A program made the translations under genes and the position numbers. Below, one piece after another: positions 1 to 6,478 of a stretch of 6,506 nucleotides of DNA (position 1 is its first letter; every line of letters begins with the position of its first letter). The stretch comes from a virus (lineage: Duplodnaviria > Heunggongvirae > Uroviricota > Caudoviricetes). The stretch lies in the IMG/VR virus record IMGVR_UViG_2531839233_000013. One strand, 5' to 3'. The notes beneath the pieces were generated by a model. The model was not told the origin of the DNA. It ran no database searches and saw nothing but the letters and a program-made list of their open reading frames with translations.

Positions 1-26
1 TTACCGGAATTGAAGCAGTTTTTACG

Positions 27-581
27 TCAAAAAGCAATAACTTTTTTCTCTATACCAAAAGCCATAACCATTGGTTTGTACAAAATAAATTCTGCCACCT
101 TTAGCCAATGCTCAATGCGTCTTTCACAGGTTCTTAAACTCCATTCCGGATGTGCATCATTCAGCAATTCAGCCATTTTGCGCTTAGTCATCCCCCGCCC
201 CACATAACGCTGACTCAGAACATTGAGCAGCCCGGGATAACCTGCCAGTACTTCACCAATAACCCTGTCGATTATTAACGCCTCTGAATCGGTACAATGC
301 ACCAGCCAGCTTTTTTGCTTGCCGTTGATCATATCCCGCAAAAAAGCCTCAAGTTTAGGTTTGTCCAGACCTGCTTTTTTCATCCTCCGGAGCGCCTCGT
401 TAATTGCCGTTTTTGTCAGCTTTTTAGAGGTCAGCAACTGGTTGAACATATTTCCCGTCTTACCGCCGCCAATATACGACCAGCGCCCCCACATACGTAG
501 TTTCCCCTGAATCCAGACACTTTCCAGCGTGGTGAGACGAAGGTGCTCTCCGCTTTTTCCTGTGTTCGTTGGGTAAATCAT
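27..581 (-). CDS. Phage late-gene antitermination protein Q-like (quuD / phage-82 type), 184 aa from the preferred start
   Basis: The ORF track gives 224 aa from an ATG at 701, but the in-frame ATG at 579-581 (MIYPTNTG...) overlaps the stop of the upstream gene as ATGA and has AAGGA about 7 nt upstream. The protein has the pattern I recall for DLP12 QuuD-type Q proteins (LRMWGRW, LTSKK, EALRRMKK, LLNVLSQRYVGRGMT) and sits where Q sits in lambdoid nin-Q regions. The stop is TGA at 27-29. Family assignment is from memory. Confidence 0.6.
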   Translation of the reverse strand: MIYPTNTGKSGEHLRLTTLESVWIQGKLRMWGRWSYIGGGKTGNMFNQLLTSKKLTKTAINEALRRMKKAGLDKPKLEAFLRDMINGKQKSWLVHCTDSEALIIDRVIGEVLAGYPGLLNVLSQRYVGRGMTKRKMAELLNDAHPEWSLRTCERRIEHWLKVAEFILYKPMVMAFGIEKKVIAF

Positions 582-868
582 AAATAACCGTCCTTTCTCC
601 AGATCTCTTGTGTGCGAAAAACACCTTCTGCATGCATCAGGCGCAATTCTTCTTTGGTGTAATCGCTGGTTTTTACTCTCCCGTCGATTAAATCGTGGCA
701 TGAGTTACAGGCAATCGCTGCCTGCATATCGTGTGGCTTTATCGCTGTTCCGCACGTTCCCGCCAGCCTGTAATGCGCCAGCACAGAGGTTTCGGGATTG
801 TGATTGCAGTAGCCAGGGATTCTGATCTGGCATATCTGGCCTTTAGCCGCTTTACGTAAATTCACCAT
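578..868 (-). CDS. ybcO: YbcO-like putative nuclease (DUF1364 family), 96 aa
   Basis: The translation MVNLRKAAKGQICQIRIPGYCNHNPETSVLAHYRLAGTCGTAIKPHDMQAAIACNSCHDLIDGR... is nearly colinear with E. coli DLP12 YbcO as I recall it, including the conserved Cys/His cluster. Its ATG at 866-868 overlaps the stop of the upstream gene (TAATG), with GGAG about 10 nt upstream. Confidence 0.8.
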   Translation of the reverse strand: MVNLRKAAKGQICQIRIPGYCNHNPETSVLAHYRLAGTCGTAIKPHDMQAAIACNSCHDLIDGRVKTSDYTKEELRLMHAEGVFRTQEIWRKDGYL

Positions 869-1467
869 TACGCAAACTCCAGTAGTTGTGCGGCCACATT
901 TTCAACTTCCTCCTGAGAGGAGAATTTACGGAACAGAATCCAGTTCCACAGCACATTCAGTACAGATTTATAAACCTGCTGAAACTCGACTTCGTCCATA
1001 TTCGCAAAAGCGATGGATTTTGCCCGACGCCCACGGCTACCGTCCGGATAAATATGCTCGGTGTAAAATCCGGCCTGAATGGTTACCCACTCGCGGAAAG
1101 CCTCAAACGACTTTAGCAACGCCGTATCCCGGGTTCTACGAGTCGCAACGGTGTTAAGGTATTGCTCTGCGGCATCACTCAGGGCTGGCGTGTGTTCCCG
1201 ACCAACTGATTCGCACAGGTAATCAACGAAACCAGACAGCAGTTCTCGTTCGCGAGGCGTGATCGCCCCACCGACCGGAGTCCAGTAATCGAATCCCAGT
1301 TGCAGGAGTTTGAAAAAACGCTTGTGGAATGCGTAGTTACGCACACGCTTAAAATCTGCGTGTATCCACTCACCTATTTTGATTTGATGCAGAAAATCGC
1401 AACTCTCCGGCGTCGCCGGGAGAAGTAAACCAGAAGAAGTTTGTTTGACCAGTTGTATATGCGCCAT
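868..1467 (-). CDS. Phage protein, DUF1367-like, 199 aa
   Basis: A clean 199-aa ORF, translationally coupled to the ybcO-like gene downstream. Its size and its position immediately before DUF1364/YbcO match the DUF1367 proteins of lambdoid prophages. The family name is from memory and has not been verified. Confidence 0.55.
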   Translation of the reverse strand: MAHIQLVKQTSSGLLLPATPESCDFLHQIKIGEWIHADFKRVRNYAFHKRFFKLLQLGFDYWTPVGGAITPRERELLSGFVDYLCESVGREHTPALSDAAEQYLNTVATRRTRDTALLKSFEAFREWVTIQAGFYTEHIYPDGSRGRRAKSIAFANMDEVEFQQVYKSVLNVLWNWILFRKFSSQEEVENVAAQLLEFA

Positions 1468-1886
1468 TTCTCAATCTCTCGATGGCGCAGTGCAGCAGAT
1501 GCCAGTTGTTCAAGCTAGCACGCAAATTGTAAACCAGAATGCCAGGAAAAAACAAAACCCGCCGAAGCTGGTTGTGTGCGGTTGCGTTGAAGTCTCCTAG
1601 CCAAAGAGTAGCGGTGACCACTCCCCGCCGATAATCTTAGTTGTTTAATTTCGTAAGCTAACTAGGCTAAAAGCTCTCTGTTGTCTGCCTGTTGTACAAT
1701 TAACAAAATGAACAACGAACTAGATATACCAACGCCAGAATGGTGCAACAAATCCCAAACAACACAGCAATGCAACAATAACATATGTTATTTTCCTCTC
1801 ACGGGATTCAGTCCTGAATTCTCATAAAGCTAATCTTTTTTTAAAAACATACTGTTAGATCACATGCACTTTCTTTCTTAACATCG

Positions 1887-1914
1887 TTGACTTCGCATGC
1901 GAAGCGTTTAAAAT
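1887..1914 (+). promoter_or_regulatory. Candidate sigma70 promoter for the ATPase operon: -35 TTGACT (1887-1892), 16-nt spacer, -10 TAAAAT (1909-1914)
   Basis: Hexamers are read directly from the sequence, 52 nt upstream of the ATG at 1967; AGAGAG at 1955-1960 is a plausible RBS. A perfect 14-bp palindrome CTTCGCATGCGAAG (1891-1904) overlaps the -35 and spacer. Confidence 0.4.
1891..1904. promoter_or_regulatory. Perfect 14-bp palindrome CTTCGCATGCGAAG, candidate operator in the ATPase-operon promoter
   Basis: The sequence equals its own reverse complement and lies between the -35 and -10 elements. Confidence 0.35.
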
Positions 1915-1966
1915 CAACAATTTGCACTTAAGGTATTTATTTTCCCAAACACATAGAGAGTAAATT

Positions 1967-3358
1967 ATGACTGAGAACACGACTCCAACAGCAGACTTTA
2001 GTCCTAGTAAAAGATTTTTTGTAAGTATGCTAACTCGAGATATCGACTTAAACGATGCCATACTTGATCTGCTTGATAACTGCGTCGATGGGGCTTTACG
2101 TACAATAAAAGACACAAAAAAAACTTCAAAACCATATGAAGGATTTTATGCGAAACTTACGATTAATAAAGATGTCTTTATTATAGAAGACAATTGCGGA
2201 GGTATCCCTAAAAGCTTCCGAGAATATGCTTTTAAAATGGGACGACCCCATCAAAAAGAAGAAGAAAATGAAGGCACCGTTGGCGTCTATGGTATTGGTA
2301 TGAAAAGAGCCATTTTTAAAATGGGTAGAGATTGCTCAATACAATCGAATAATCCCGATGGCGCATTCACTGTAGATATAACACCTGATTGGATCGATGG
2401 TGATGGTTGGAAAATACCGATGCACGAGAGTGACTATGATAACAAAAATCCAACAGGCACAACTATAGAGATAAAAAAACTCCATTCTAATGTGGCACAA
2501 AAATTTAATGAGAGCACATATCTTACTGATCTCTTTTTACAGATAAAACACTCATTGTCATTTATTATTCAAAAAGGATTTAAAATAGAATTAAATGGAG
2601 TTGTTGTTGAACATAATCCGATTAACATCATAACTGATCATTCTAAAATAGAACCATACATATATAAAGCTAAAATAGACGATGTTGATATCGATTTAGT
2701 TGTTGGCTTCTATAAAAATTTAGAAGATGACAATGATGATGTTTTAGAAAAAAGGAGTTCTGATGATGCTGGATGGACTGTCATTTGCAATGACCGCGTT
2801 GTTCTATATTGTGATAAGACACATCTCACAGGTTGGGGCTTTGCTAATGTACCAAGGTTTCATACCCAATTTATAGCAATTTCTGGGGTTGTTCGCTTTA
2901 CCAGTAAAAACCCAGAAAAATTACCAATAACAACAACGAAACGAGGTGTCGATCTTAGTTCTACATTGTACAATGATGTACGAAATAAAATGATTGAAGG
3001 GATGATGCATTTTATTCGATTCACCAATCAGTGGAAAGGTGAGCATCTTGAAGAAGGGAAAAAATTACTTAAGTCAGCTCAGTCACATGAAGCTCAATCT
3101 TTATTTGAAATTACCCCACAATCAACTCCAGAAGATAAAAAAAATAACTGGTCCAACCCTAATAGAAACAAAAATGAGTGGCGATATACACCTAAGCTGC
3201 CTACCCCAGTAAAAAAAAGCTCTACTGTACGAATAATCTTCACCAGAGAGAAAGAAGATGTTAAAATTTTATCTAAATATTTCTTTGGACATGAAGATGC
3301 TAGCGCTTCTGATGTGGGGATGCAATGCTTTGATACGGTGATTGAAGAGGTGAAGTGA
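1967..3358 (+). CDS. GHKL-superfamily ATPase (MutL/MORC/Hsp90-like Bergerat fold), 463 aa
   Basis: All four Bergerat-fold motifs are present in order: N-box D34-L-L-D-N38-C-V-D41-G-A (compare MutL ELVENSLDAGA and MORC ELxDN), G1 box I-E-D75-N-C-G-G79-I (compare MutL DNGCGI), G2 box G106-V-Y-G109-I-G111, and G164-T-T-I-E-I (compare MutL GTTV). The roughly 260 C-terminal residues are unassigned. Stop is TGA at 3356-3358. Confidence 0.8.
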   Translation: MTENTTPTADFSPSKRFFVSMLTRDIDLNDAILDLLDNCVDGALRTIKDTKKTSKPYEGFYAKLTINKDVFIIEDNCGGIPKSFREYAFKMGRPHQKEEENEGTVGVYGIGMKRAIFKMGRDCSIQSNNPDGAFTVDITPDWIDGDGWKIPMHESDYDNKNPTGTTIEIKKLHSNVAQKFNESTYLTDLFLQIKHSLSFIIQKGFKIELNGVVVEHNPINIITDHSKIEPYIYKAKIDDVDIDLVVGFYKNLEDDNDDVLEKRSSDDAGWTVICNDRVVLYCDKTHLTGWGFANVPRFHTQFIAISGVVRFTSKNPEKLPITTTKRGVDLSSTLYNDVRNKMIEGMMHFIRFTNQWKGEHLEEGKKLLKSAQSHEAQSLFEITPQSTPEDKKNNWSNPNRNKNEWRYTPKLPTPVKKSSTVRIIFTREKEDVKILSKYFFGHEDASASDVGMQCFDTVIEEVK

Positions 3359-4347
3359 TGTCTGGACAATACATTCCCTATCACTTAAGGCATAATAAGT
3401 CTATTGATAGAGAGATTTTTCTCGAAAGCCTAAACCTCTTAAGCAAAAGACTAAATATTCAAGAATATACATATATAGGTTTTGGTGGTCCGATGCTTGA
3501 AGATTTTAGAATCATGCATAATCGTATCGCTCTTTCTGATATGATTTCTCTCGAAGAACAAGAGTCTACTCACATCAGACAAAAATATAATTTGCCTTAT
3601 AATTGTATTGATTGTAAGCTAATATCAGCTCATGACTTTATTCTTGATTATAGTTTTTCTAAACCATCAATAACATGGTTAGACTATGCCTCCCCGAAAA
3701 AAATACAAACGGATCTAGATGATATACACTTACTAAGTACTAAAGTAAGCTCTTTTGATATTTTGAAGGTCACCTTCCCCATAAATCCTAGTTCTTATTA
3801 CCAACGTAGAGTTGGAGAAAGTTTAGATATTTTTAAAGAAGCTTTTATTAATTCATTAAAATCATTGCTTGGGAAAAAGTATCTTGATTTTAATCTTCAG
3901 ATATCAAATGCAGATCTTTCAGATCGTAAGATTAAAGCTCTTTTAATACGAATTATTACAAACGCTTTTAGATCAGCAATAGAACGTGGTCTTTCAGGAC
4001 GTAAGGATAAGATTCAGTATTACCCATTATCCTTAAATCAATATAATGATGGCAGTCATACCATGTTGACAATATCAGGTTTTTTCTCCTCAGAACAAGA
4101 ATATATAGAGTTATCTAAGGCATGCGACCTTTCTAACTGGCAATTTTATTCAACAAATTGGGAAGACGTGCAAGAAATAGCAATACCAACACTAACAATT
4201 AAAGAAAAGATAAATTTAGATAGTAAACTGCCTGATAAAGAAGCATATCAGGCAGCCGCTGAAGAGTTCTCTTTAAACGAAAATGAACGGGATAACTATT
4301 ATAAATACTATAGGTTATACCCTAACTTCCAAAGAATTATGGTTTAA
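3358..4347 (+). CDS. Hypothetical protein, 329 aa, translationally coupled partner of the GHKL ATPase
   Basis: A long ORF with the same AT-rich composition as the ATPase gene. The ATG at 3358 overlaps the ATPase stop (TGATG), with a GAGG core at 3347-3350 about 7 nt upstream; the track's GTG at 3355 is an alternative start. No transmembrane stretch and no motif I can assign. Stop is TAA at 4345-4347. Confidence 0.7.
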   Translation: MSGQYIPYHLRHNKSIDREIFLESLNLLSKRLNIQEYTYIGFGGPMLEDFRIMHNRIALSDMISLEEQESTHIRQKYNLPYNCIDCKLISAHDFILDYSFSKPSITWLDYASPKKIQTDLDDIHLLSTKVSSFDILKVTFPINPSSYYQRRVGESLDIFKEAFINSLKSLLGKKYLDFNLQISNADLSDRKIKALLIRIITNAFRSAIERGLSGRKDKIQYYPLSLNQYNDGSHTMLTISGFFSSEQEYIELSKACDLSNWQFYSTNWEDVQEIAIPTLTIKEKINLDSKLPDKEAYQAAAEEFSLNENERDNYYKYYRLYPNFQRIMV

Positions 4348-5466
4348 ATATTCGGGCTGTACTCTTTTATTTAATAAATTGTACAGCCCCTTTAATATAT
4401 ATTCAGCAACTATTGGTGACACGCTATTTCCTATTTGTCTGAAACTATGCCATTTAGTTACATGAAAGCGAAACCAATCAGGGAAGCCTTGTAATCTAGC
4501 AGCTTCTCTTGGTGTAATCACTCTTGGATGATAAGGGTGGATCGGCCTGACGGCTTGAAAGCTTCCTTTATCTCTAGCGGTTCCCGCCCTTAAAGTCGGG
4601 CAAAAACCATTTGGATCTAATCTTGTAGATCTTGAAATTTTATCAGTTTCCCCAAAAGATAAGGAAGCATAACGCTCTTGGACGATTTTGCTATGTAATG
4701 TTCCGGTACATCCAGATATGATATTATTTTTTAACTTAGCGATCGATTCTGTATCACCAACATTCCGAGGGATCTGCCCCCATAATTTTTCATAAAATCC
4801 CCCTTTTCGATCTTTTTTAATTGTTCGCCAACTCTCAGAGTCTGATTGCCAATTGGCATCGATAATATCTGGTAATCCATACAAAGCATCTTTTACAGTA
4901 ACCGGATCAATCATTTTAGGCATAAATACTTCATCTGAAATATCAAGCTTCAATGATTTTTTTACACCGATAAAAAAATATCTAGTTCGAATAGTTGGAG
5001 CACCATAATCAGATGCTTTTACCTTGATGGGATCAAGAATATCATAATCACCGCTAACCAAATTAAATGCTTTATTTCTAATGCCAGAATATTTCTCTTG
5101 CATAATACCTGGAACATTTTCTGCCAAAAAGAATAATGGCTGTAATTCTGATACTAAACGGTAGAAATGCATGTAAAGCTGATTCCTGCTATCATCAGGA
5201 TTCCCCTTGCCTATTGAACTAAATCCTTGGCACGGAGGACCGCCAATAATACCATCTATGGGCATATCGTTTTTAAAAAAACCCTTAATTATTTCTGCAT
5301 TTAGTAAAGAAACATCTTCTTGGACGTGCAAACTTCTTGGAAAATTAATTGCGTGAGTATTAATAGCATGTTGATCAATTTCAACTGCCATTTTAACATC
5401 AAATCCAGCACGTGCAGCACCAAGACTTAGACCTCCAACGCCAGAAAACAAATCTATTACATTCAT
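4315..5466 (-). CDS. DNA (cytosine-5)-methyltransferase, Dcm-type, 383 aa
   Basis: Canonical C5-MTase motifs: motif I D-L-F7-S-G-V-G-G12 (AdoMet binding), motif IV G-G-P-P78-C79-Q-G-F-S (catalytic Cys), motif VI F-F-L-A-E116-N-V, motif VIII P-T-I-R-T-R-Y-F-F-I-G, motif X R-Q-I-G-N-S-V-S-P. The variable target-recognition region lies between VIII and IX. Confidence 0.92.
   Translation of the reverse strand: MNVIDLFSGVGGLSLGAARAGFDVKMAVEIDQHAINTHAINFPRSLHVQEDVSLLNAEIIKGFFKNDMPIDGIIGGPPCQGFSSIGKGNPDDSRNQLYMHFYRLVSELQPLFFLAENVPGIMQEKYSGIRNKAFNLVSGDYDILDPIKVKASDYGAPTIRTRYFFIGVKKSLKLDISDEVFMPKMIDPVTVKDALYGLPDIIDANWQSDSESWRTIKKDRKGGFYEKLWGQIPRNVGDTESIAKLKNNIISGCTGTLHSKIVQERYASLSFGETDKISRSTRLDPNGFCPTLRAGTARDKGSFQAVRPIHPYHPRVITPREAARLQGFPDWFRFHVTKWHSFRQIGNSVSPIVAEYILKGLYNLLNKRVQPEYLNHNSLEVRV
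4354..4400 (+). terminator. Candidate intrinsic terminator for the ATPase-partner operon
   Basis: A perfect 9-bp inverted repeat GGGCTGTAC (4354-4362) / GTACAGCCC (4381-4389) with an 18-nt AT-rich loop, followed by CTTTAATATAT. It starts 7 nt after the partner stop and lies inside the 3' coding end of the convergent methyltransferase gene. The loop is longer than in a textbook terminator. Confidence 0.35.
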
Positions 5467-5498
5467 ATAGTTGCAACGTCTCTTATTAGTTTCTATGT

Positions 5499-5528
5499 AT
5501 TATAACACAACTGTTCTTGATGTTTTAA
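5499..5528 (-). promoter_or_regulatory. Candidate promoter for the methyltransferase with extended -10 (TGTTATAAT on the minus strand)
   Basis: Plus-strand ATTATAACA at 5499-5507 reads TGTTATAAT on the minus strand, about 33 nt upstream of the ATG at 5466. The -35 is weak (best TTAAAA-like), which is usual for extended -10 promoters. Confidence 0.4.
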
Positions 5529-5728
5529 CCCCATAAGATAACCTCATAAAGGCTATCCCTTGAAAATACCGGATCGCATAAATTTAATCTTTCAAAACTA
5601 CTTGTCTATTAATCGAGCAATTTAAGGTTGTTTTAGTCATGTCGATACCGACATAGTTAACTAAACCCATTTCATCGTCCAACAAATGGGGGTAATACAC
5701 TTTGATTTATAGTCGGGTGGGTTTTTCT

Positions 5729-5764
5729 CTATCTGCCTTTGGTGTTCATGCCCAAGGCAGATAG
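5729..5764. repeat. Near-perfect 13-bp inverted repeat CTATCTGCCTT(T)GG ... CC(C)AAGGCAGATAG with a ~9-nt spacer, at the right island/backbone transition
   Basis: Read directly from the sequence. No U-tract follows on either strand, so it is not a typical intrinsic terminator. Confidence 0.5.
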
Positions 5765-5897: not shown

Positions 5898-6293
5898 TCA
5901 TTGATTCACCTTCTGCTCAATATTTTTAAGGTCATTTTCCGCATACAGTATTGCAGTTCTTGCTGCCCGCAACCGTGCTTTGGTGTTCTTTTCTTCACGC
6001 TCGAGGCTGGCAACAGATTCTCGGAGCTGATCGTGTCTGTTATGAAGCTGTCTAATCTCTCTCACCACAGCCTCACCATCGTTCGCACACCGCAGAACAT
6101 ACTGAAAAGGGTCCACAACACATCCGCACTGCAAGCACAGGATAACGTGATCCTGTTCATGAACCTCAATGGCCCGATGCTTACAGCTCTGTTGTGTGTA
6201 GTTTTTTCTGCCAGTTACTGTAATGTTCAGCAGCTTCTCTTCATCGCGCTTTGGCTGCACCAGTGTGATGATATTATCGCCTTCATTTTCCAT
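5898..6293 (-). CDS. Phage hypothetical protein, 131 aa, with a Cys/His cluster and a charged C-terminal helix
   Basis: The ATG at 6291-6293 has a strong RBS (AGGAGGT about 7 nt upstream) and overlaps the upstream stop as ATGA; the track's longer 156-aa start at 6368 lacks this support. The sequence contains CKHRAIEVHEQDHVILCLQCGC and an R/E/K-rich tail. Backbone-like G+C. Confidence 0.55.
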   Translation of the reverse strand: MENEGDNIITLVQPKRDEEKLLNITVTGRKNYTQQSCKHRAIEVHEQDHVILCLQCGCVVDPFQYVLRCANDGEAVVREIRQLHNRHDQLRESVASLEREEKNTKARLRAARTAILYAENDLKNIEQKVNQ

Positions 6294-6478
6294 CAGTTCA
6301 CCTCCTGCGGCGGTTCTGGTAGCGGCATCCAGTGTGACGGTTTCCACGACGCACCAGGAATTATCCACCCATCATTAGCGTCAGGATGCCCCGGGATGTA
6401 AGTCGCCCACTTCATTCGCCAGTCACCTTTCCTGTCAAACTCCACGGCAACAAGAACGGCTGTTTTGGTATCCGGCAT
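6293..6478 (-). CDS. Phage hypothetical protein, at least 61 aa, possibly 5'-incomplete
   Basis: The ORF is translationally coupled to the downstream gene (ATGA at 6293). The reading frame stays open upstream of the ATG at 6478 to the window edge at 6506, so the true start may lie outside the window. Confidence 0.45.
   Translation of the reverse strand: MPDTKTAVLVAVEFDRKGDWRMKWATYIPGHPDANDGWIIPGASWKPSHWMPLPEPPQEVN

Follow-up and report, generated by a model that had tools for sequence, protein, structure and literature searches.

A three-gene prophage cassette with overlapping convergent genes

The stretch analysed here, 6,506 nucleotides from a viral record (IMG/VR IMGVR_UViG_2531839233_000013) and hereafter called the window, is a segment of a lambdoid prophage for which 173 complete E. 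coli genomes gave matches of at least 99% identity, every one of them in the chromosome. The genomes carrying it include O157:H7 Sakai (prophage Sp10, ECs_1953-1955), EDL933 and 86-24. The window holds a cassette of three genes: an operon formed by a GHKL ATPase gene and a gene of the PF20553 family, here called the partner gene, and, on the opposite strand, a gene for a C5 DNA cytosine methyltransferase that converges on the operon. The 3′ ends of the partner and methyltransferase genes overlap, and two hairpins, H1 and H2, are embedded in the region where the genes meet (Table 1).

A preliminary description of this DNA had placed the end of the partner gene at 4347 and that of the methyltransferase gene at 4315, giving an overlap of 33 bp, and both the open reading frames (ORFs) and the RefSeq annotation bear this out (RefSeq coordinates 7459-8448 and 8416-9567 in the identical sequence L001, with matching ends for ECs_1954 and ECs_1953 in Sakai). 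The identical 33-bp overlap recurs in 12 distinct cassettes, whose partner proteins span 54-100% identity, among loci collected through partner-protein homologues from Klebsiella, Enterobacter, Yersinia and metagenomes. The methyltransferase stop codon reads, on the other strand, as the TTA codon for Leu321 of the partner. This codon is either TTA or CTA, both of which are antisense stops, in the 6 loci of alignment A2, which comprises the window, L007, L009, L011, L013 and L015, two of these being non-overlapping relatives.

Table 1. Features of the cassette, with positions numbered from the first letter of the window, and H1 arms of three related loci.
Feature	Position	Strand	Details
Promoter-like site, ATPase gene (TTGACT-16-TAAAAT)	1887..1914	+	10/12 consensus matches; 53 nt upstream of ATG 1967
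GHKL ATPase gene (HATPase_c_3, MORC/Hsp90-like)	1967..3358	+	PF13589, 2.9e-09; first in operon; ECs_1955 in Sakai
Partner gene (Methyltransf_35)	3358..4347	+	PF20553, 2e-89; annotated start 3358; ECs_1954 in Sakai
Predicted transcript complementarity zone, about 175-180 nt	4218..4398	.	From H1/H2 positions and strand bias
H2	4226..4257	-	Core arms 4228-4237 CTGCCTGATA / 4246-4255 TATCAGGCAG, plus two G.U pairs on the minus strand; tail UUUACUAUCUA
Convergent ORF overlap, 33 bp	4315..4347	.	ORF list; same ends in RefSeq annotation
C5 DNA cytosine methyltransferase gene	4315..5466	-	PF00145, 2.6e-61; TIGR00675; PADLOC MTase_II, 2e-98; ECs_1953 in Sakai
Methyltransferase C-terminal extension, 18 codons	4318..4371	-	NKRVQPEYLNHNSLEVRV; relative to non-overlapping relatives
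H1	4354..4389	+	Arms 4354-4362 GGGCTGTAC / 4381-4389 GTACAGCCC; antisense within methyltransferase ORF
Promoter-like site, methyltransferase gene (TTAAAA-18-TATAAT, extended TG)	5499..5528	-	10/12 consensus matches; 33 nt upstream of ATG 5466
H1 arms, L009			5′ AGGCTGCGT; 3′ ACGTAGCCT
H1 arms, L047			5′ AAAAGTTGCGCG; 3′ CGCGCAACTTTT
H1 arms, L048			5′ CTGTACGATGTC; 3′ GGCGTCGTACAG

Base pairing of H1 is conserved across relatives

H1 begins 6 nt past the TAA of the partner gene, and its arms fall within the methyltransferase codons G-L-Y and V-Q-P. The perfect 9-bp stem just past the partner stop and within the methyltransferase coding sequence, as initially described, is present in the sequence; 6 of its pairs are G-C, and it encloses a loop of 18 nt, or of 8 nt when three inner A-U/U-A pairs are formed. 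The hairpin had also been placed inside the overlap zone, which holds for the predicted overlap of the transcripts but not for the 33-bp ORF overlap, which it lies 7 nt outside. As plus-strand RNA, H1 reached -17.2 kcal/mol (z = -4.2), a stability that none of 200 shuffles attained, and was among the three most stable of the 730 50-nt segments on the plus strand of the cassette; the minus strand of the window copy, at -17.7 kcal/mol, was about equal. Given that the window contains 15 inverted repeats of at least 9 nt, a 9-bp repeat in a single sequence is not far beyond chance, and the significance of H1 therefore rests on comparison.

Among the overlapping cassettes, H1 was located at the same alignment columns in 12 of 12, despite widely differing arm sequences; the homologues of the window copy have stems of 11-17 bp that start 6-12 nt past the partner stop. 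Pairing was scored on a MAFFT alignment built without structure input: 89.9% of cells were paired on the plus strand, compared with 24-51% when the 3′ partners were slid by 1-3 columns. Both sides had changed in 11 of the 14 pairs (35 cells), and 0 of 500 shuffles matched the observed values, a count that is not a probability, the aligned sequences being related by descent. RNAalifold independently returned the same helix with a consensus loop of 11 nt. Moreover, the compensatory changes alter methyltransferase residues (GLY..VQP, RLR..TQP, KLY..AQL and others), indicating that nucleic-acid base pairing, and not the peptide, is what has been conserved. A protein-level explanation, in which the arms would be kept through selection on the methyltransferase tail, was rejected; the residues vary, and only a central CTG/CAG (Leu/Gln) is constant.

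The pairing is also asymmetric between the strands. Wobble pairs (G.U/U.G) occupied 20 cells on the plus strand and 1 on the minus strand, where the same positions become C.A mismatches and overall pairing was 78.6%. Hairpin-only free energies favoured the plus strand in 11 of 12 cassettes, by a mean of 4.5 kcal/mol, the exception being the E. coli copy, which is fully Watson-Crick. Folding of 50-nt segments along the 3.7-kb cassette placed H1 as the top or second plus-strand fold in 10 of the 11 cassettes scanned (third in the window), whereas on the minus strand its rank ranged from 2nd to 28th. The wobble and energy biases thus argue that the selected H1 fold is formed in plus-strand RNA, at the 3′ end of the ATPase-partner transcript.

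Opposite strand bias in a further hairpin, H2

The preliminary description did not report H2, which occupies the partner codons KLPDKEAYQAA at a distance of about 57 nt beyond the stop of the methyltransferase gene. Energy scans located the strongest minus-strand fold in most cassettes about 135 nt before the partner stop, and in the window this fold is H2. The hairpin was recovered in 12 of 12 overlapping cassettes, at -15 to -20 kcal/mol for the hairpin alone and with the register shifted by one in L050, and it was missing from all four non-overlapping relatives (4/4) when these loci were folded. The minus strand was more stable in 10 of 12 cassettes, by a mean of 3.9 kcal/mol, and 16 wobble cells were found on the minus strand against 4 on the plus strand; RNAalifold also predicts H2. 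These properties make H2 a candidate 3′-end hairpin, which probably ends the methyltransferase transcript. Furthermore, the opposite strand biases of two hairpins 100 nt apart rule out an artefact of base composition.

The methyltransferase is extended through H1

Methyltransferases of the non-overlapping relatives end 3-4 residues after an aligned ..LYNL/..LVKL motif, and those of the overlapping cassettes continue through H1. None of the 12 cassettes has a stop in the methyltransferase frame across H1, compared with stops in 11 of 12 for each of the other two minus-strand frames; the chance of a shuffled sequence being open was P about 0.26. An indel in the H1 loop measures 3 nt, and the frame is kept. 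The final 11 methyltransferase residues mirror synonymous variation in the strongly conserved C-terminus of the partner (YRLYPNFQRIMV), a motif that is conserved in non-overlapping and distant homologues as well. Translation through H1, or the tail itself, appears to be selected, and since the tail peptide is poorly conserved, translation is favoured as the selected feature. Such translation would hold the H1 complement unfolded in the methyltransferase mRNA, letting the transcript reach H2.

Relatives without overlap carry a single junction hairpin

In L015 (Yersinia, with a gap of 58 nt) and L051 (gap of 28 nt), one symmetric hairpin fills the space between the two stop codons, and that of L051, flanked by an A tract and a U tract, is a classic bidirectional terminator. 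These single hairpins suggest a terminator role for junction hairpins across the wider family. The arrangement in the overlapping clade appears derived and compacted, in that one bidirectional hairpin would have given way to two strand-biased, buried ones and the methyltransferase would have gained 18 codons. An independent 19-bp overlap of the partner and methyltransferase ORFs was observed in the distant cassette L002 (Azoarcus sp. Aa7, 5993-6011), whose partner protein has 36% identity.

Crossed hairpins as probable 3′ ends of convergent transcription units

Collectively, we interpret H1 and H2 as crossed 3′-end hairpins of the convergent units, arranged as in convergent excludons whose terminators overlap, and we assign this interpretation a probability of roughly two in three. 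Under this model, the 3′ end of each convergent transcription unit would be set by one of two crossed, largely strand-specific RNA hairpins. H1 would end or stabilise the ATPase-partner mRNA, and would thereby bar plus-strand transcription from the methyltransferase gene, where it would be antisense, and from the phage genes beyond. The methyltransferase would be translated through the H1 complement and stop 33 bp inside the partner gene, with its transcript continuing to H2. Formation of 3′ ends at the hairpins could proceed by intrinsic termination, by pausing or collision, or by a block to 3′ exonucleases. Given the crossed positions of H1 and H2, the two mRNAs are predicted to be complementary over ~175 nt. 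In the Sakai record NC_002695.2, the ATPase-partner transcript would end at about 1,936,194-1,936,202 on the minus strand (window 4390-4398) and the methyltransferase transcript at about 1,936,367-1,936,375 on the plus strand (window 4217-4225), with starts expected close to window 1920 (+) and 5490 (-).

A canonical intrinsic terminator has a G+C-rich stem, a short loop (about 3-8 nt) and a U-rich tract directly 3′. H1 has such a stem directly downstream of the partner stop. Several observations weigh against the model. The H1 loop is too long for a canonical terminator, with minimum-free-energy loops of 8-13 nt in the 12 sequences. A clear canonical U tract is missing from both hairpins, and a consensus terminator scan called neither H1 nor H2. 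The H1 tail of the window (CUUUAAUAU) contains 5 U among 9 nt, including a run of 3, and went uncalled in that scan; across the family, the tail averages 3.6 U in 9 nt on the plus strand (range 1-6) and 3.4 on the minus strand, and the tails of L009 and L050 have one U only. When U tracts were tested for strand bias, none was found for H1 and a weak one for H2, and the U residues are not independent evidence, because they are supplied by conserved Lys codons of the opposite gene. In addition, a terminating ribosome could mask the 5′ arm of H1, which lies only 6 nt past the stop codon. The window copy of H1 is equally stable on both strands, so that the strand bias is a property of the family and not of the E. 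coli sequence; the shared descent of the aligned sequences tempers the shuffle counts, as stated above; covariation in H2 is modest (4 of 12 pairs, 6 cells); and folding of the L002 junction revealed no strong hairpins. The earlier proposal that H1 stops plus-strand read-through accordingly survives in part: a conserved plus-strand RNA fold does follow the partner stop, as would suit an element that terminates the ATPase-partner transcript or shields its 3′ end, but this fold lacks a clear canonical U tract, encloses a long loop and was left uncalled by the terminator scan. Convergent transcription, as also suggested earlier, may couple the expression of the two arms.

Several of these features would suit a different role, in which H1 is a bidirectional pause or collision element that holds converging RNA polymerases on both strands (Ju et al. 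2019; Wang et al. 2022). Convergent promoter-like sites flank H1, a canonical U tract is lacking on its plus and minus strands alike, and the window copy folds equally stably on both; such elements are described as unlike intrinsic terminators, needing a stem-loop to fix the collision site (bioRxiv 10.1101/2022.10.23.513370). We nevertheless consider this role quite unlikely, as minus-strand H1 is weaker in 11 of 12 lineages (mean 4.5 kcal/mol) with wobble pairs accumulating on the plus strand only, methyltransferase translation through H1 should keep the minus-strand RNA unfolded, and a separate minus-strand-biased hairpin, H2, lies downstream.

It is more improbable still that H1 acts in the methyltransferase mRNA on the minus strand, for instance as a brake on ribosomes that approach the end of the ORF or as a stabiliser of the message. 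Its position 13-24 codons before the methyltransferase stop, the maintenance of the frame through it and, in the window, a minus-strand fold as stable as the plus-strand one would fit such a role; the family-wide data point the other way, with pairing of 78.6% on the minus strand versus 89.9% on the plus strand, C.A mismatches on the minus strand at the plus-strand G.U positions, and fold ranks of 2nd-28th versus 1st-3rd.

Both hairpins are inverted repeats and the cassette is mobile among prophages, as would be expected if H1 and H2 were features of the DNA itself, such as a cruciform, a palindromic protein-binding site or a recombination site. The odds of this are remote: the complementarity of the arms is conserved and their sequence is not, which argues against a protein-binding site; G.T tolerance is one-stranded and opposite for H1 and H2, which is unexpected for duplex DNA or a cruciform; and the hairpins are internal to the cassette, away from its borders. 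Equally disfavoured is the view that the overlap and hairpins are functionless, neutral by-products of gene compaction in a phage moron, for although compact mobile DNA often has short convergent overlaps, a single 9-bp inverted repeat is not very unlikely in 6.5 kb of AT-rich DNA and the last 11 methyltransferase residues mirror synonymous changes in the conserved partner C-terminus, that view is opposed by covariation with amino-acid-changing compensations over 12 lineages, by the opposite strand biases of H1 and H2, by the absence of H2 exactly where the genes do not overlap, and by a frame open in 12/12 versus stops in 11/12 for each other frame.

Promoter-like sites and expression

The two best promoter-like sites of the window (Table 1) face each other across the cassette; they are consensus matches only, and the window holds no more promoter-like sites than expected from shuffling. 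A weaker site at 4394-4422 on the minus strand (GTGTCA-17-TATATT, 9/12 matches, at chance level) was noted just upstream of the H1 complement, and transcription starting there would enter the 3′ end of the partner gene in antisense and reach H2. Between the upstream phage ORF and the promoter region of the methyltransferase gene, a 14-nt inverted repeat at 5729-5764 (CTATCTGCCTTTGG / CCCAAGGCAGATAG), 93% complementary with an 8-nt loop, overlaps a terminator-like call at 5714-5738.

In an array study of the Sakai strain, ECs1954 and ECs1955 were expressed and co-regulated, and were down by log2 2.6 and 3.2 at the entry into stationary phase (PMC2241611). ECs1953 does not appear in the >4-fold transition-point table of that study (Table 2), nor among the rows of its Table 3 that were examined (PMC2241611).

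Genes of the cassette and their products

At window positions 3356-3360, the partner ATG and the ATPase TGA share 1 nt (TGATG), a stop/start junction that suggests translational coupling of the ATPase and partner; an alternative partner start is a GTG at 3355. The same juxtaposition was observed in the enterobacterial homologous loci with called genes, and the two genes overlap by 4 nt in L051 and in Scytonema L052.

The AlphaFold2 model of the ATPase (predicted local distance difference test score, pLDDT, 82.6) resembles best the folds of Hsp90/TRAP1, topoisomerase IV ATPase, SMCHD1 and MORC2/3, with no nuclease domain in the model, and that of the partner (pLDDT 88.4) is predicted to adopt a class I S-adenosylmethionine (SAM)-methyltransferase fold. 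Searches of PADLOC and NCBIfam gave no match for the ATPase or partner beyond generic GHKL, PHROGs matches were to families of unknown function only, and a PDB sequence search returned no match for either protein. Neither PF20553 nor the RefSeq protein accessions yielded any result in literature searches. Compared with a type II restriction-modification (R-M) system, the cassette possesses the DNA methyltransferase; Pfam, PADLOC and NCBIfam detected no nuclease family in it, and no cognate restriction endonuclease was found among its genes. The label of effector arm, given to the ATPase-partner operon in the preliminary description, is consequently an assumption; what the operon encodes is a GHKL/MORC-like module and a predicted SAM-methyltransferase fold, with no nuclease found.

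Genomic context and distribution

The G+C content of the three-gene insert (window 1600-5600) is 31-37%, about 35% over the cassette, versus 45-51% in the phage flanks, as expected of a horizontally acquired moron. We compared genomic contexts using window 1-1467 and 5898-6478 and the loci L007, L015, L046, L047, L048 and L050. In 7 of 9 contexts the cassette was situated within a lambdoid rightward operon, on one side of Q or the other (replication genes to Q, or Q to holin); in those contexts the methyltransferase gene is co-directional with the phage genes and the ATPase-partner operon is opposed. In this orientation, antiterminated phage transcription would read the methyltransferase in sense and the ATPase and partner in antisense.

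The trio is kept as far as Azoarcus, Spirochaetales and Smithella, with the methyltransferase usually convergent, and homologues of the ATPase number more than 5,400. In Scytonema hofmannii (L052/L053, 5001-7438), a pair of ATPase and PF20553 genes was observed with no C5 methyltransferase within 5 kb by tblastn. An adjacent methylase is therefore not always needed, which argues against a simple restriction-enzyme role. A four-gene variant was seen in L013 and L049 (about 5208-8249 and 4274-6990), in which a second, 608-aa HATPase_c_3 protein adjoins the methyltransferase; these two genes converge on the ATPase-partner pair across 218-284 nt. A megablast search of the cassette against phage GenBank records gave no match, and an Rfam scan of the whole window detected no family. 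The cassette is an uncharacterised three-gene system, prophage-borne and widespread.

Significance and comparison with known systems

A further-reaching proposal is that the crossed hairpins and the ORF extension form a dedicated 3′-antisense switch for the three-gene system, with phage induction favouring the methyltransferase, which we regard as rather doubtful. If it were true, the two arms would limit each other in the lysogen, via ~175 nt of complementary RNA or polymerase collision; upon induction, antiterminated phage transcription would pass H2, raise methyltransferase expression and silence the ATPase-partner operon. The locus offers a clean comparative case of RNA structure selected within two overlapping coding regions, in which residue changes have been accepted to keep base pairs and opposite wobble biases reveal the transcript that each hairpin would serve. 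The predicted 3′ ends can be checked directly in public Term-seq, differential RNA sequencing (dRNA-seq) and total RNA-seq data from enterohaemorrhagic E. coli Sakai (GSE143631; Sy et al. 2020, PMC7547250). They would also mark the ends of the transcription units in a widespread cassette (MORC-like ATPase, PF20553, Dcm), which would be useful for cloning or dissecting it.

In the prokaryotic MORC/paraMORC systems described from R-M-like operons, a GHKL ATPase is paired with superfamily II (SF-II) helicases or nucleases (Iyer, Abhiman and Aravind 2008, PMC2292703). The cassette is like these systems in having a GHKL plus S5-like ATPase beside a cytosine methylase on mobile DNA, and unlike them in that its invariant partner is a PF20553 protein with a predicted SAM-methyltransferase fold and that no helicase or nuclease was found in the cassette. 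Antisense control in R-M systems, as with the reverse promoters of EcoRI and with Eco29kI, has been proposed to set the ratio of methylase to its partner (PMC3141266; review PMC12707154). Here too, the methyltransferase and partner genes are placed such that transcripts of one could be antisense to the other; unlike EcoRI and Eco29kI, where internal reverse promoters act at 5′ ends, the antisense in this cassette would arise at 3′ ends, and the partner proteins include no recognised endonuclease.

Bidirectional and collision terminators (Ju et al. 2019; Wang et al.) likewise consist of a stem-loop without a canonical U tract at a convergent meeting point, and L015 and L051 have exactly one symmetric hairpin of the bidirectional-terminator kind. 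The overlapping clade is unlike them in carrying two opposite-biased hairpins 100 nt apart, one of which would be translated through. H1 itself departs from a single bidirectional terminator, since it lies inside the methyltransferase ORF and its stability is unequal between the strands, being equal in the window copy only.

The predicted layout is that of convergent excludons, which in E. coli MG1655 were reported to have terminators within the neighbouring convergent transcription unit in 146 of 165 cases (ExcludonFinder 2025, PMC12288877); regulation through overlapping 3′ regions is well established (Toledo-Arana and Lasa 2020, PMC7154746). The cassette resembles these in that each putative terminator lies in the other unit and the 3′ regions are predicted to be complementary, here as deduced from sequence, with H1 in the methyltransferase ORF and H2 in the partner ORF. 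It differs from the E. coli excludons described in that both hairpins lie within the coding sequence of the other gene and the ORFs overlap by 33 bp. No new principle is involved, as crossed terminators of convergent genes are already known and are common in E. coli; what is distinctive here is that both hairpins and both ORF ends are interleaved in coding sequence.

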